From: a virus
Reading direction: 5' to 3' (one strand)
Virus record (IMG/VR): IMGVR_UViG_3300020429_000529
Location: 390,762-454,761 of that record
DNA: 64,000 nucleotides
The notes under the pieces were generated by a model. The model saw only the letters and a list, made by a program, of their open reading frames with translations, was not told the DNA's origin and ran no database searches. Within the stretch, counting starts at the first letter, position 1, and each line of letters starts with the position of its first letter. Positions 22,076 through 26,602 of the stretch are shown here, piece by piece. The position numbers were made by a program, and so were the translations under genes.

Positions 22076-22675
22076 TTGCCTTTAGGAAAGAACGACCTGA
22101 GGATTTTCCTCGACATGGACGGGTGCGTATACGATTGGATGGGCAAAGCGATGGACATCTTCGATGTTGATCCCGCCGATCCCAAGAACAGAGACATCCT
22201 CAAGTACGATGATGATTCTCTGTTCGAGCTTCGAGACAAAACTCACGTTTACGACGTTATCGACCAGATGGGCGAACAGTTCTGGGAGAACTTGCACCTT
22301 CTTCCATGGGGGAGAGCGCTGTACGAAGGCCTCAAGAAGCGAGGAAAGGTTGTTTTCCTGACATCGCCCGGTAAATGGGCTGCGGCAGCGCAAGGCAAAG
22401 TTCGCGCCATCCGAAGAGACTTCGATACCAGCAAGATTCTTGTAGGTCGAAGCAAAGAGTATTGCGCGCATCCCAATGCCATACTCATCGATGACAAGAA
22501 GTCCAACATAGAGAACTTCATCGAGGCGGGCGGAACCGGCTTTCTTTGGCCGAACCAATATCGCATCGAAGACGGCGACATTGAAGTTGAAAAGGTGCTT
22601 GAGTCCTGCTTCAAAGAGGTAGAGAAGTTGAGCCACAAAATCAGGGAGCGACAGAAAAGATATGTCCCAGCATAA
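22076..22675 (+). CDS. HAD-family 5'(3')-deoxyribonucleotidase-like phosphatase
   Basis: FLDMDGCVYDW (DxDG motif I) at the N-terminus. Confidence 0.65.
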   Translation: MPLGKNDLRIFLDMDGCVYDWMGKAMDIFDVDPADPKNRDILKYDDDSLFELRDKTHVYDVIDQMGEQFWENLHLLPWGRALYEGLKKRGKVVFLTSPGKWAAAAQGKVRAIRRDFDTSKILVGRSKEYCAHPNAILIDDKKSNIENFIEAGGTGFLWPNQYRIEDGDIEVEKVLESCFKEVEKLSHKIRERQKRYVPA

Positions 22676-23249
22676 ACTCGCAGGTATGAAATGCTACTTG
22701 TCAGGATCGATCGAAGCATCGAGAGATCATGGCATCGCTTGGCGCAAACAGTTCATTGATAGCTGTTGGGACAACGATCTTCCCTTCGGTTTCATCGATC
22801 CCTGCAACAAGGGGCCTGGCGCAATTCAAGAAGAGATCGGCGAGGAGCGCCGCAAGCTGCAGGCACTCAAGGCCGAGGGTCGCTTCGATGAAGTCACCGA
22901 CATCATGAAGCAAGTCCGCCGTTGGGATCTTCGCGCAGTTGATTACTCCAACTTCATTGTTGCTGTTATCGATCGCAATGTCCCTACCTGGGGAACTGTA
23001 GACGAGTGCATTGTCGCAGAGAGACAGCGTAAGCCTCTCATTGGCATTGTCAAGGGAGGGCCATCTCAGGCTCCTGATTGGCTCTTTGCAATGATGAGAC
23101 ATGACGAGATGTTTGAGACGGCAGATCAGGCTGTTGAGTATCTGGTCAAGTTGGATAGGGGAGAAATCCCGTTGGACAAACGATGGATCGAGATCACTGG
23201 GCTATGGGAAAATGAGCAGCGCTACTCTCTTCCGCTACTCGGGGAGTAA
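22662..23249 (+). CDS. nucleoside 2-deoxyribosyltransferase-like protein
   Basis: KCYLSGSIEA...FIDP...VAVID...WGTVDECIVAERQRKPLIGI follows the Nuc_deoxyrib_tr-like pattern. Confidence 0.55.
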   Translation: MSQHKLAGMKCYLSGSIEASRDHGIAWRKQFIDSCWDNDLPFGFIDPCNKGPGAIQEEIGEERRKLQALKAEGRFDEVTDIMKQVRRWDLRAVDYSNFIVAVIDRNVPTWGTVDECIVAERQRKPLIGIVKGGPSQAPDWLFAMMRHDEMFETADQAVEYLVKLDRGEIPLDKRWIEITGLWENEQRYSLPLLGE

Positions 23250-23967
23250 GAAGAAGCTGGTTCCTCTTATGGAACCGCCTCCCTTCAAGCCCAAGAGGGT
23301 TGTTGAGCCGTATCTTGGCGGCGGCGGTTATATTCTGTCGAGTTGGAAACCTGCTCTTGGCATCGATGTCAATGAAGAGGTCATTCAGCTTTGGAAGTGG
23401 TTGAGAGACGAGGCTGATCTTGAGCGACTGTATGAGATCAGAGAGATTGTAGAGGCGGCAAAGAAACAGGATCCCGATGGGAAGCCCGATGTACGAGAAA
23501 TGCCTTTGAGCGAGGCAGAGCAGACATACGTTCGAGTCAATGTCACAGGAGCGTATGTCGGACAACTGAGTTCATGGAAAGTTTATCCTCAGCATAGTCT
23601 ACCAGTAAATCAGACAGCGAAGTTTCTTGAGAGGATCGAGAATGTTGAGCTAACCCATGGCAAAGCCGAAGAGGATTATCATGAAGTTGATGGCGATGTC
23701 GTTTTCCTTGACCCTCCGTATACCGGGACAACTGGTAACTACAAAAACAGGGGAGTTGGAGGAATTGAAGAAGGGTACGACCCGAAGACCACCGTTCGTC
23801 TCATTCGGAGACTTTCAGCCCCAACTATCCTCACTTATGGATCAAACGCCAAAGAGGTCTTCCCTGACTTCGATTGGAGAGTCCTGGCCAAGCGCAAAGT
23901 CCCTCGCTTGAGAGGCGGCGGAACCATAGAGAGGATTGAGCATGTCTGCTATTTCAACTGGGAATGA
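23212..23967 (+). CDS. DNA N6-adenine methyltransferase, Dam (D12) family
   Basis: RYSGSKKKLV...EPYLGGGG and VVFLDPPYTGT (DPPY). Confidence 0.8.
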   Translation: MSSATLFRYSGSKKKLVPLMEPPPFKPKRVVEPYLGGGGYILSSWKPALGIDVNEEVIQLWKWLRDEADLERLYEIREIVEAAKKQDPDGKPDVREMPLSEAEQTYVRVNVTGAYVGQLSSWKVYPQHSLPVNQTAKFLERIENVELTHGKAEEDYHEVDGDVVFLDPPYTGTTGNYKNRGVGGIEEGYDPKTTVRLIRRLSAPTILTYGSNAKEVFPDFDWRVLAKRKVPRLRGGGTIERIEHVCYFNWE

Positions 23968-24053
23968 GGCAACCGTGGAAGAGGCGACCATCGATCGAGA
24001 TCAGACCGATGATCCTGAACAGATGTTGTTTGATTTCATGACGGAGAAGTGAC

Positions 24054-24689: not shown

Positions 24690-25367
24690 ATGTCTGCAAT
24701 TGTCAAGCCAAAGATACGGAGGATCTGTCTCTACGGCGGTCCTGGAACAGGTAAGTCTACAACTGCTTCTGATCTCTTTGCTGAGTTCAAGCGCATGTGC
24801 GTTGATAGCGAGGTTGATCGACAGTTTGAGCTTATTCAAGAGTTTGTCAAGCAGTGGGCATGGGAGGGCAAGAGTCCCAAGGGATTCGATCAGGTCTTTA
24901 TCTTTGCGAATCAGCAGCAGAGAGAAGAGATCCCGCTTCGAGCAGGCGTGCATCATATCTTCACGGACTCGCCTCTTTTCTTGGGCGCTGCCTATGCGAG
25001 GAAGTATCACAGCAAGACTTTCAACTCGCTCATCTCGCTGGCCGAGTTGCATGAAGAAGAGTATCCTGGCCTTCATATCTTCCTTGAGCGAGGCGATCGC
25101 CCGTATGTTGGCAAGGGTCGTTATGAGGATGCGGACAAGGCTCGACGGATGGACGACTATATCCGTAGCCTTCTCGATCTGTATGTTGGTAGCGAAAACT
25201 ACCTGACAATGCCGTACAACGATCGAGATCAAATCGTTGCGACTATCGCCGATCGTCTTGATCTTTCCAAGTATTCTGCGAAAGAAGAACCCGAAGCAAG
25301 ATCCTTTCCGCAGGCGGATGCTCGGGCTGTCGCAGAATATCACAGTTCTGGCGGAAGCGATTTCTGA
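24690..25367 (+). CDS. P-loop NTPase (possible nucleotide/deoxynucleotide kinase)
   Basis: ICLYGGPGTGKST Walker A. Confidence 0.5.
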   Translation: MSAIVKPKIRRICLYGGPGTGKSTTASDLFAEFKRMCVDSEVDRQFELIQEFVKQWAWEGKSPKGFDQVFIFANQQQREEIPLRAGVHHIFTDSPLFLGAAYARKYHSKTFNSLISLAELHEEEYPGLHIFLERGDRPYVGKGRYEDADKARRMDDYIRSLLDLYVGSENYLTMPYNDRDQIVATIADRLDLSKYSAKEEPEARSFPQADARAVAEYHSSGGSDF

Positions 25368-25376
25368 GGTACAACG

Positions 25377-25907
25377 ATGAAACTCAAAGCACCAATTGAC
25401 GTTATCCAAAACCCTACAGCGGAAGATGTCATGTTCATGAAGATGGCTGTTGAATACGCATCTGGCGGCACAGACACTTCTACCCGCAACGGCGCTGTCC
25501 TTGTTGATTCAAGCGGCAACCATGTTCTTGCAAGGAACGGTATTCCTGATAGGCATGGCGTGAAGATCACAGATGCTCGTCTCAATGAAAGACCGCTAAA
25601 GTATAACGTCATCGAGCATGCTGAAGACGGCACGATCTTTGAAGCGGCTCGTCAAGGAGTCCGAACAGAAGGCTCAACAGTTTATTGCCCTTGGTATGCA
25701 TGTTCGGGTTGCGCTGTTTCTTTGATATGCGCTGGAGTCGCTCGCATTGTTGGTCATATGGGCATGCTGAGGCGAACGCCTGAGCGATGGATGGAAGATG
25801 TGGATCTTGGTTTTGAGATGCTTCATGAAGCAGGCATCAAATGCGAAGCCATCGACACTCCTCTCGGTCTCACAACGCTGATGAACGGAGAAGAAATTGA
25901 ACTCTGA
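25377..25907 (+). CDS. cytidine/deoxycytidylate deaminase family protein
   Basis: VIEHAEDGTI (HAE) ... CPWYACSGCA (PCxxC-type). Confidence 0.65.
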   Translation: MKLKAPIDVIQNPTAEDVMFMKMAVEYASGGTDTSTRNGAVLVDSSGNHVLARNGIPDRHGVKITDARLNERPLKYNVIEHAEDGTIFEAARQGVRTEGSTVYCPWYACSGCAVSLICAGVARIVGHMGMLRRTPERWMEDVDLGFEMLHEAGIKCEAIDTPLGLTTLMNGEEIEL

Positions 25908-26602
25908 TGGATGATTTCAAAGGGAAAGTCTGTATCAATGAAAAAGGTCGCATTGGTCTTGTGACCAATCGCACTGGAATTCCCTGGCAATGGTCTGGCA
26001 AAGATTTGTCTGATGATAGCTGGTGGGAGGCCAAGACTTTTCGCGTATTGTATGATTCGCTTGAAGAATATGAACGAGATCGTCACGTTCTCGGCATAGG
26101 CAAAGAGTATCACAACGACAAGTACGAGCGATGGACCATGGATCAAGCGTTCATGTCCATGGCCTTCTGCATGTCGAAGTGTTCGCATGATTCAAATACG
26201 CAGCATGGCGCTGTTGTTGTAGATGAGAGAAGTCATCCTCTTGCTTCTGGTTGCAATGGATGGCTTCCGAAGTCTCCCGATTCTCTGATGCCTAATACCA
26301 GAGAAGGCGGCTTCAAGTATGCCCATGTTCGTCATGCGGAAATAAACACCCTGAGTCAGGCGACTCGATCAGATCTCAGCGGATGCCGCATATATGTGAC
26401 TGGTCTTCCATGCAACAACTGCATGAGCGAGATCATTGCGCGCGGCATCCGCGAGGTCATTGTCGGAGATGTAGGCCATGTTTTCGGCGATGGCTTTTGG
26501 GAGATGCATAACTTCCTGGTTCGATCTCACGGAGTTACCGTTCGGTATTTTGACGATGAAATTGTGGATACGTCAAAGACCAGGAGATTGAAGCATGGAT
26601 GA
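25907..26602 (+). CDS. dCMP/cytidine deaminase family protein (second, tandem)
   Basis: VRHAEINTL ... GLPCNNCMSEI (HAE plus PCxxC). Confidence 0.7.
   Translation: MDDFKGKVCINEKGRIGLVTNRTGIPWQWSGKDLSDDSWWEAKTFRVLYDSLEEYERDRHVLGIGKEYHNDKYERWTMDQAFMSMAFCMSKCSHDSNTQHGAVVVDERSHPLASGCNGWLPKSPDSLMPNTREGGFKYAHVRHAEINTLSQATRSDLSGCRIYVTGLPCNNCMSEIIARGIREVIVGDVGHVFGDGFWEMHNFLVRSHGVTVRYFDDEIVDTSKTRRLKHG

Follow-up and report, generated by a model that had tools for sequence, protein, structure and literature searches.

The 64-kb window analyzed here, i.e., the whole stretch of 64,000 nucleotides at positions 390,762 to 454,761 of the IMG/VR virus record IMGVR_UViG_3300020429_000529, contains a compact block of nucleotide-metabolism genes (22076-26602) in which two different zinc deaminases of the dCMP deaminase (DCTD) family lie in tandem behind a P-loop kinase with a predicted thymidylate-kinase-like fold. 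We conclude, with moderate confidence, that the nucleotide-pool genes of this block form a loose run for conversion of the pyrimidine pool toward dTTP, and not a single dedicated pathway. The proteins of the block are found identically on many public marine contigs (Tara, ENA, Logan), the longest of which span 498,610-502,461 bp, and the source looks like an uncultured marine megaphage of ~498.6 kb. No close relative was retrieved when positions 22000-29900 were compared by blastn with the 50,697 deposited phage records of INPHARED, the sole match being a 142-bp stretch of RtcB, and the locus is absent from the GTDB representative genomes in an exact-match search.

The original prediction, made from the DNA letters, had placed seven consecutive genes in the block, and an open reading frame (ORF) listing recovers all seven at the same coordinates and on the + strand: an NT5C-like HAD 5'(3')-deoxyribonucleotidase (g1, 22076-22675, 199 aa, TTG start), a protein with a nucleoside 2-deoxyribosyltransferase (NDT) fold (g2, 22662-23249, 195 aa), a Dam-like D12-class N6-adenine DNA methyltransferase (g3, 23212-23967, 251 aa), a borderline MazG-like all-alpha NTP pyrophosphohydrolase (g4, 24054-24461, 135 aa), the P-loop nucleotide kinase of the AAA_28 family (g5, 24690-25367, 225 aa), a DCTD-family zinc deaminase of a PBCV-1-like subfamily (g6 or deam1, 25377-25907, 176 aa) and a second DCTD-family zinc deaminase (g7 or deam2, 25907-26602, 231 aa). 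All seven family calls hold at the family or fold level according to Pfam, PHROG, PDB and Foldseek matches, but the genes are not strictly consecutive, as an unnamed ORF of 69 aa (24472-24681, + strand) intervenes between the MazG-like gene and the kinase. The block is co-directional and tightly packed, most junctions being an overlap or a gap of at most 10 nt, and the stop codon of deam1 overlaps the start codon of deam2 as ATGA.

Comparison with four syntenic relatives (L008, 80 kb; L009, 90 kb; L010, 48 kb; L015, a 488-kb IMG/VR contig) separates a constant part of the block from a variable one. All four share, in the same order, the NDT-like gene, Dam, the kinase, deam2, and genes for TilS-like, RtcB and NUDIX proteins, with deam2 in syntenic position and 49-61% identical. 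None of the four has deam1 or the HAD gene, and MazG is kept in L008 only, being absent from L009, L010 and L015. In a further contig (L011) it is a deam1-type gene, not deam2, that follows the kinase, and a kinase-deaminase pair is conserved in all five of these contigs as well as in L053 and L076. The constant of the clade is thus the kinase with one DCTD, whereas the window phage carries both deaminase types. Since deam1, the HAD gene and MazG come and go between relatives, they can be regarded as accessory; and because relatives exist without deam1 and the HAD gene, and three of the four without MazG, the seven genes do not form one conserved pathway.

The kinase g5 is the best-conserved gene of the block (64-86% identical in relatives) and belongs to a family of 3032 representatives. 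It matches PF13521 (AAA_28) with 55 bits and phrog_2107, annotated as thymidylate kinase, at 2e-12, has the P-loop GGPGTGKST, and conserves R134 and G143-R144, consistent with an Arg-rich LID. Searches of the PDB by sequence gave no match outside the Walker A region. An AlphaFold2 (AF2) model (pLDDT 92.6) was more informative: Foldseek ranks 1 to 37 are all thymidylate kinases, with a best E of 2.4e-5 and TM-scores of about 0.5-0.57, and a deoxycytidine kinase first appears at rank 38. Thymidylate kinases carry a DR(Y/H/F) motif; at the D-R-Y position the g5 family has T-D-S-P. From the model we infer a nucleotide kinase of the thymidylate kinase (TMK) fold, together with its presumed substrate. 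In L009 the g5 homolog (8358-10001) is split by an intein with Hom_end_hint and LAGLIDADG domains, its exteins being 85% identical to g5; inteins usually reside in essential, highly conserved genes.

Both deaminases can be assigned to the DCTD family. PF00383 is matched with 41.9 bits by deam1 and 62 bits by deam2 (cut-off 25), and phrog_174 at 8e-19 and 2.3e-33, respectively; deam2 falls under the NCBIfam ComEB equivalog cut-off (31 vs 219). The best PDB match is the PBCV-1 dCMP/dCTP deaminase 7fh4 for deam1 (7.2e-14) and human DCTD 2w4l for deam2 (2.3e-17), and all PDB matches of either protein at E <=0.01 are dCMP deaminases, save one marginal match to CDADC1 (E 0.0023). As TadA, guanine deaminase and RibD do not occur among these matches, tRNA, guanine and riboflavin deaminase identities were ruled out, and the choice left to be made between dCMP and guanine/tRNA deaminase families falls on the former for both proteins. 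Aligned with human DCTD and the PBCV-1 enzyme, both retain the His, Glu, Cys, Cys zinc/catalytic set, which contradicts the scenario of one degenerate copy devoid of zinc ligands. Both had been described as carrying HAE plus PCxxC; HAE is indeed present in both and deam2 has PCNNC, but deam1 reads ACSGC, and throughout its subfamily the Pro is replaced and both Cys ligands are kept (ACSRC, CCKKC, ACSDC). The motifs of deam2 are RHAE, LPCNNC and KY..V.HAE, and it bears an N-terminal extension of ~50-75 aa that is poorly conserved among homologs.

The two proteins also diverge at the allosteric site, where the DCTD motif G(Y/W)N(A/G) binds dCTP as an activator (PMC12088426). At this position deam1 has ARNG and its homologs AKNG, EVND or GACG, i.e., the motif is absent, while deam2 has GCNG and its homologs GCNG or GFNG, with G, N and G retained and the aromatic residue occurring in some members only. 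An invariant Trp of deam1 (W138) aligns with W121 of the PBCV-1 enzyme, which contacts the C5 methyl group (PMC12088426). The two deaminases share 32% identity, which excludes a recent duplication, and homologs at 40-62% identity on other contigs indicate that both are real genes. Both the overall GC content of deam1 and that at its third codon positions (0.44 vs about 0.5-0.6) are just slightly low, which as a sign of recent transfer is not decisive.

In the pool conversion that we favor, the conserved core would be the TMK-fold kinase g5 followed in gene order by the DCTD-type dCMP deaminase g7. The MazG-like g4 would convert dCTP to dCMP, and g7, by its family, would deaminate dCMP to dUMP; dUMP would become dTMP through a thymidylate synthase from the host or from another part of the phage genome, none having been found in the parts scanned (the called genes of the window at ~15.9-56.7 kb, the larger ORFs at 0-20 kb and 56-64 kb, and 8 kb upstream); and g5, judging from its fold, would phosphorylate dTMP to dTDP. 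The second, PBCV-1-like DCTD, g6, may have been acquired independently; it lacks the canonical allosteric motif, and its most likely contribution is further deaminase capacity, either unregulated or regulated in another way. The 5'-deoxynucleotidase g1 and g2, most likely a dNMP N-glycosidase, would both act on dNMPs in salvage or sanitizing, and Dam would methylate phage DNA at adenine as an ordinary modification. The intactness of the genes, their families or folds, the zinc ligands, the synteny and the rarity of the pair are observed, whereas all substrates and the direction of flux are deduced from them. The dNTP-pool editing offered by the original prediction as one of two options fits this set of a MazG-like protein, two DCTDs, a TMK-fold kinase and a 5'-deoxynucleotidase, the usual components by which phages convert their pyrimidine pool. 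It is further supported by a deam1 homolog (45% identical) in L013/L014 that overlaps the end of ThyX and precedes a YfbR-like HD nucleotidase, the classic pairing of dCMP deaminase with thymidylate synthase. Other deam1-family loci lie in T4-like genomes near ribonucleotide reductase and dUTPase, and the company of deam1-type genes elsewhere would accordingly be that expected of an ordinary dCMP deaminase. Of the domains that share a locus with phage dCMP deaminases, MazG/PRA-PH ranks in the five most frequent (bioRxiv 10.1101/2024.12.05.627091).

Several observations weigh against this interpretation. The likeness of g5 to thymidylate kinases is one of fold only, with matches to AAA_28 and AAA but none to Pfam Thymidylate_kin or to any NCBIfam model, and the MazG assignment of g4 is borderline at the sequence level. 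No thymidylate synthase occurs in the ~72 kb inspected of 498.6 kb, so that the central step from dUMP to dTMP is unobserved. The clade keeps its gene order over tens of kb, which makes adjacency weak evidence of shared function. The closest structural relatives of deam1 include enzymes acting on triphosphates or 5-methyl substrates (PBCV-1, mSCD-B5). Finally, the same arrangement of kinase, deam1-type gene and canonical DCTD recurs in a distant phage (L047), which redundancy explains poorly and which hints at complementary roles, weakly given that it is known from two lineages.

This recurrence has to be set against the overall rarity of the tandem pair. Two deaminase genes were found together in none of the INPHARED records matching deam1 (0/244) or deam2 (0/642), in one of 19 deam1-type loci of IMG/VR, in two of 37 from JGI metagenomes (the same lineage) and in one of 80 deam2-like loci of IMG/VR (again the same lineage). 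All positives come from one further lineage, known from a 188-kb contig (L047, L068, L137) and an 82-kb contig (L138); the pair is thus rare, occurring in no cultured phage examined and in a single lineage besides that of the window. In L047 (IMGVR_UViG_3300024259_001450, 2355-4981) a YfbR-like HD nucleotidase, a TMK-fold kinase (32% identical to g5), a deam1-type gene (46% identical to deam1) and a canonical DCTD with GYNG and PCSDC follow one another, so that the composition matches that of the window, with a nucleotidase, a kinase, and a deaminase of non-allosteric type ahead of one of allosteric type, in a distant phage.

Such an arrangement could reflect a division of labor in which deam2 acts on dCMP and deam1 on dCTP/dCDP, like the PBCV-1 enzyme, or on C5-modified dCTP, like XP-12 DCTD and mSCD-B5, the MazG-like protein returning dUTP to dUMP; this is the strongest rival, although we regard it as doubtful. 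The best PDB matches point in this direction, that of deam1 being bifunctional and that of deam2 being human DCTD, as does the fact that mSCD-B5, which is strictly triphosphate- and 5-methylcytosine (5mC)-specific, is likewise closest to 7FH4 (bioRxiv 10.1101/2024.12.05.627091). The absence of the dCTP-activator motif from the deam1 family (motif from PMC12088426), the invariant W138 at the position of the C5-methyl contact W121 (PMC12088426) and the tandem of deam1-type and canonical GYNG deaminases after a kinase in the distant 188-kb phage are all compatible with it. However, the deam1-type gene is the sole deaminase at most loci, and in L013 it stands beside ThyX, as an ordinary dCMP deaminase would; selectivity for 5mC, as published, is a polyphyletic trait that sequence does not reveal; and no dCMP methylase was found in the scanned parts. 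A broader form of the idea, that a deam1-type and a DCTD-type gene behind a TMK-fold kinase constitute a recurrent cassette for substrates at different phosphorylation levels or with C5 substituents, e.g., with deam1 taking dCTP or 5-methyl-dCTP to dUTP or dTTP, seems unlikely.

Alternatively, the two deaminases might assemble into one hetero-oligomeric ring resembling CDADC1, in which one type would tune how the other is regulated or how specific it is. DCTDs form hexameric rings, and in that of CDADC1 two diverged DCTD domains alternate (PMC12088426), the ATGA overlap of the two genes is compatible with translational coupling, and the gene order recurs in L047; but deam2 stands alone in L008-L010 and L015, deam1-type genes stand alone in L011 and ~50 other loci, and both proteins keep the catalytic Glu, unlike the inactive N-terminal domain of CDADC1. 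Since each type occurs alone in relatives, each is presumably autonomous, and we consider a mixed ring quite improbable.

The remaining alternative, that of the original prediction, includes g2 as a base-exchange enzyme. The protein scores under the Pfam thresholds (PF15891, 17.4 bits vs 30; PF05014, 12.2 bits vs 28.8), although some homologs bear precomputed PF05014 or PF15891 matches, and its profile retrieves from the PDB YtoQ at E 0.0016 and the Trypanosoma brucei NDT at E 0.11. An AF2 model built from a 60-sequence family alignment (pLDDT 88.8) places NDTs, YtoQ, DNPH1 and MilB on top in Foldseek (best E 1.6e-5, prob 1.0; TM-scores of 0.53-0.57 on the query and 0.66-0.75 on the target); the top 39 PDB matches are all NDTs, YtoQ, DNPH1, MilB or uncharacterized, with no other named fold. 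On this model g2 has a flavodoxin-like NDT fold. Among 60 homologs G15, W27, R28, D89, D94, G111 and E115 are invariant and Y12 nearly so; E115 aligns with the catalytic Glu of CGTAFE in the T. brucei NDT, and the invariant R28 would be compatible with phosphate binding. A literature search on YtoQ returned no paper naming it in title or abstract.

The genomic context of the g2 family, which has at least 189 members, was examined at 68 dereplicated IMG/VR loci. Among the ORFs lying within 3 kb, all compared by BLAST, there was a kinase at one locus, Dam at four, HAD at three and a deaminase at none (0/68); the HAD gene, g2 and Dam occur together within 3 kb in L175, L180 and L181. Pfam analysis of the nearest ORF on each side showed a DeoC-family aldolase abutting the start of the g2 homolog on the same strand at eight of the 68 loci (L206, L214, L215, L219, L232, L241, L243, L250; about 2160-3007), GMP reductase/IMPDH at five (L212, L218, L221, L239, L247), SET at five, a D12 methyltransferase at four and MazG at two. 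The DeoC neighbors fit a release of deoxyribose 5-phosphate from dNMPs, as by DNPH1/Rcl, and g2 is therefore probably a DNPH1/Rcl-like dNMP N-glycosidase; together with the GMP reductase genes, this context favors dNMP hydrolysis over base exchange. The commonest neighbor of the family is a divergently oriented protein of ~215-260 aa without Pfam match, from a sequence cluster of 16 members. In a 212-kb phage (L170, 3633-11714) a g2 homolog lies amid three D12 methyltransferases, one with an intein, and an N6_N4 methyltransferase, an arrangement that echoes the adjacency of g2 and Dam in the window.

The enzymes that would make an unusual base, such as 5mC, dZ, 7-deazaguanine or a derivative of 5hmU/5hmC, were sought by Pfam among the scanned window ORFs and the 8 kb upstream, where there is no thymidylate-synthase homolog, hydroxymethylase, PurZ or TGT/DpdA, so that the thymidylate synthase or hydroxymethylase genes that might have supported the synthesis of a non-canonical nucleotide did not turn up there; nor is a transferase or aGPT-Pplase present in or near the block. 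A scan of IMG/VR with the ThyX of L013 gave 15 loci, none of them on a megaphage-sized contig of the clade of the window. In a published association study of metaviromes, 70% of the deaminases encoded on cytosine-modified contigs, but 6.1% of those on unmodified ones, had a thymidylate synthase no farther than 3 kb away (bioRxiv 10.1101/2024.12.05.627091); from these figures, with no thymidylate synthase at the locus, a rough estimate of about 15% is obtained for cytosine modification in the DNA of the window phage, which would make it unlikely. That the block serves DNA hypermodification, making a non-canonical nucleotide by base exchange (g2), the kinase (g5) and the two deaminases, is a reading to which we give very little credence: DCTD-family phage genes are enriched on cytosine-modified contigs (bioRxiv 10.1101/2024.12.05.627091), the fold relatives DNPH1 and MilB of g2 act on 5-hydroxymethyl pyrimidine nucleotides, the window encodes a GT4 glycosyltransferase and a 2OG-Fe(II) oxygenase elsewhere, and the scans took in only ~15% of the genome, but no base-making enzyme was found, the block is not kept as a unit in relatives, the g2 family adjoins DeoC and never a deaminase at the 68 loci, and g5 resembles free-nucleotide kinases, which leaves this half of the original prediction without positive support.

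The HAD gene g1 matches PF06941 (NT5C) with 27.3 bits (cut-off 24.8) and phrog_2643, a 5'-3' deoxyribonucleotidase, at 5e-17, and its translation carries the HAD catalytic motif DMDG; a PDB sequence search gave nothing useful. It is an accessory gene, absent from L008, L009, L010 and L015. Directly upstream of it lie an HNH endonuclease gene (20853-21131, - strand; PHROG HNH matches) and a LAGLIDADG homing endonuclease gene (21228-21935, + strand; phrog_4645 at 2.9e-39 and a faint LAGLIDADG_3 match), which are no part of the pathway and may mark a mobile insertion hotspot. Dam (g3) matches PF02086 with 42.9 bits, TIGR00571 at 8e-10 and phrog_56, has the motif DPPY and is 56-60% identical to its counterparts in L008 and L015; as regards a Dam signature, the window shows no depletion of GATC (540 observed vs 520 +/- 19 expected). 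The MazG-like g4 falls just under the PF12643 cut-off (26.7 bits vs 27) and matches phrog_3301 (pyrophosphatase) at 1.8e-5, with weak PDB matches to MazZ (7ody, E 0.09) and DCTPP1 (E 0.21); its homolog in L008, the only relative with MazG, is 62% identical. The 69-aa ORF has no PHROG match; gene calling recovers it in L001 and L002, and in L009 (7703-8098) and L015 (5594-5998) its homologs occur as a tandem duplicate or as a fused repeat.

Downstream of the block a TilS-like PP-loop ATPase gene (26905-27990, + strand; TIGR02432 with 160.7 bits, cut-off 93.6; PF01171 at 2.5e-44) follows deam2 as it does in all relatives, and is itself followed by genes for an R2K ATP-grasp protein (28403-29278), RtcB (29321-30589) and a NUDIX protein (31878-32546), while PNKP and an RNA ligase are encoded upstream (16032-17015; 12587-13228). 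Together these six form an RNA-repair and tRNA-modification set. No tRNA gene was found in the 64-kb window; one had been sought that might tie the deaminases or the TilS-like gene to tRNA editing. Most genes around the block are ORFans. The cell-like genes of the window also include those for a GT4 glycosyltransferase, a truncated HisRS-like class II aminoacyl-tRNA synthetase core, a sigma-70-family factor, GroES/GroEL and an EpmC-like protein (1879-2880; 5353-6066; 7848-8357; about 52400-54942), and a Prs-like ribose-phosphate pyrophosphokinase (8358-9380) and a NADAR-domain protein (3427-4101) are encoded as well. An NAD-reconstitution pair of the NARP1 type is unsupported, as the 398-aa ORF at 9776-10972 has no Namat/NAMPT match and only a "membrane protein" PHROG. 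At about 56000-62000 there is a strand switch with strongly negative GC skew, including a Fic-domain gene (61193-61903, - strand) and an AAA_21/SMC-like ATPase gene (60553-61227, + strand); the Fic protein is recorded only on contigs of <2 kb and not on the ~500-kb contigs, and this region may vary between strains.

What deserves attention is that two large phages, distant from each other, both have two diverged DCTD subfamilies in tandem after the same kinase. Should the two deaminases simply add up in capacity, the block would be routine nucleotide metabolism of an uncultured megaphage; if the cassette proposed above were real, this would be a megaphage with a thymidylate-synthase-independent route to dTTP or with C5-modified cytosine in its DNA. 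Some DCTD-like enzymes of phages have proved to be specific for triphosphates or selective for 5mC, and such deaminases are of use in biotechnology. The analysis also brings up two large, uncharacterized, phage-associated families, the NDT-fold family of g2 (>189 members) and the TMK-fold AAA_28 family of g5 (~3000 representatives).

Among known systems, phage T4 converts its pyrimidine pool with the gp56 dCTPase/dUTPase, the Cd dCMP deaminase, the Td thymidylate synthase and the gp1 dNMP kinase. The block has the same enzyme classes (a MazG-like pyrophosphatase, a DCTD deaminase and a dNMP-kinase fold) and would share the logic of leading dC to dTTP, but its pyrophosphatase and kinase are of other families than gp56 and gp1, it has two deaminases instead of one, and its neighborhood yielded neither a thymidylate synthase nor a hydroxymethylase. 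Common to deam1 and the PBCV-1 deaminase (7FH4) are an AAR-G(V/I) segment and a Trp at the position of W121, whereas the PBCV-1 enzyme, responsive to both dCTP and dTTP, has GYNG and PCxxC (PMC12088426), against ARNG and ACxxC in deam1. With human and classical DCTD (2W4L) deam2 shares HAE, PCxxC, KY..V.HAE and the N-G of the allosteric motif, differing from the classical hexamers in having GCNG (GFNG in relatives) for G(Y/W)N(A/G) and an N-terminal extension.

The XP-12 DCTD and mSCD-B5, phage deaminases selective for 5-methyl-dCTP, are in the same DCTD superfamily as the window deaminases, at an identity of only about 27-40%, and adjoin a dCMP-methylating thymidylate synthase homolog, of which none was found at the window locus. 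Activity on dCTP has been described for the PBCV-1 enzyme and on 5m-dCTP for the XP-12 enzyme (PMC12088426). The tblastn matches of both window deaminases include those of Xanthomonas, Stenotrophomonas and PaMx74 phages that lie beside thymidylate synthase, Xp12 and PaMx74 being 5mC phages (bioRxiv 10.1101/2024.12.05.627091). Vertebrate CDADC1, a dCTP deaminase with two DCTD-like domains in one chain, resembles the window in having two diverged DCTD modules head to tail, but those of the window are separate genes, both with the catalytic Glu and each found alone in related phages, and the match to CDADC1 is marginal. Lastly, g2 resembles DNPH1/Rcl, MilB/BcmB and the NDTs in its predicted fold, in an N-terminal Y-L-S-G motif and in the alignment of E115 with their nucleophile, and is set apart from them by an identity of 10-20%, an extra helical insert (~59-95) and the invariant W27-R28.

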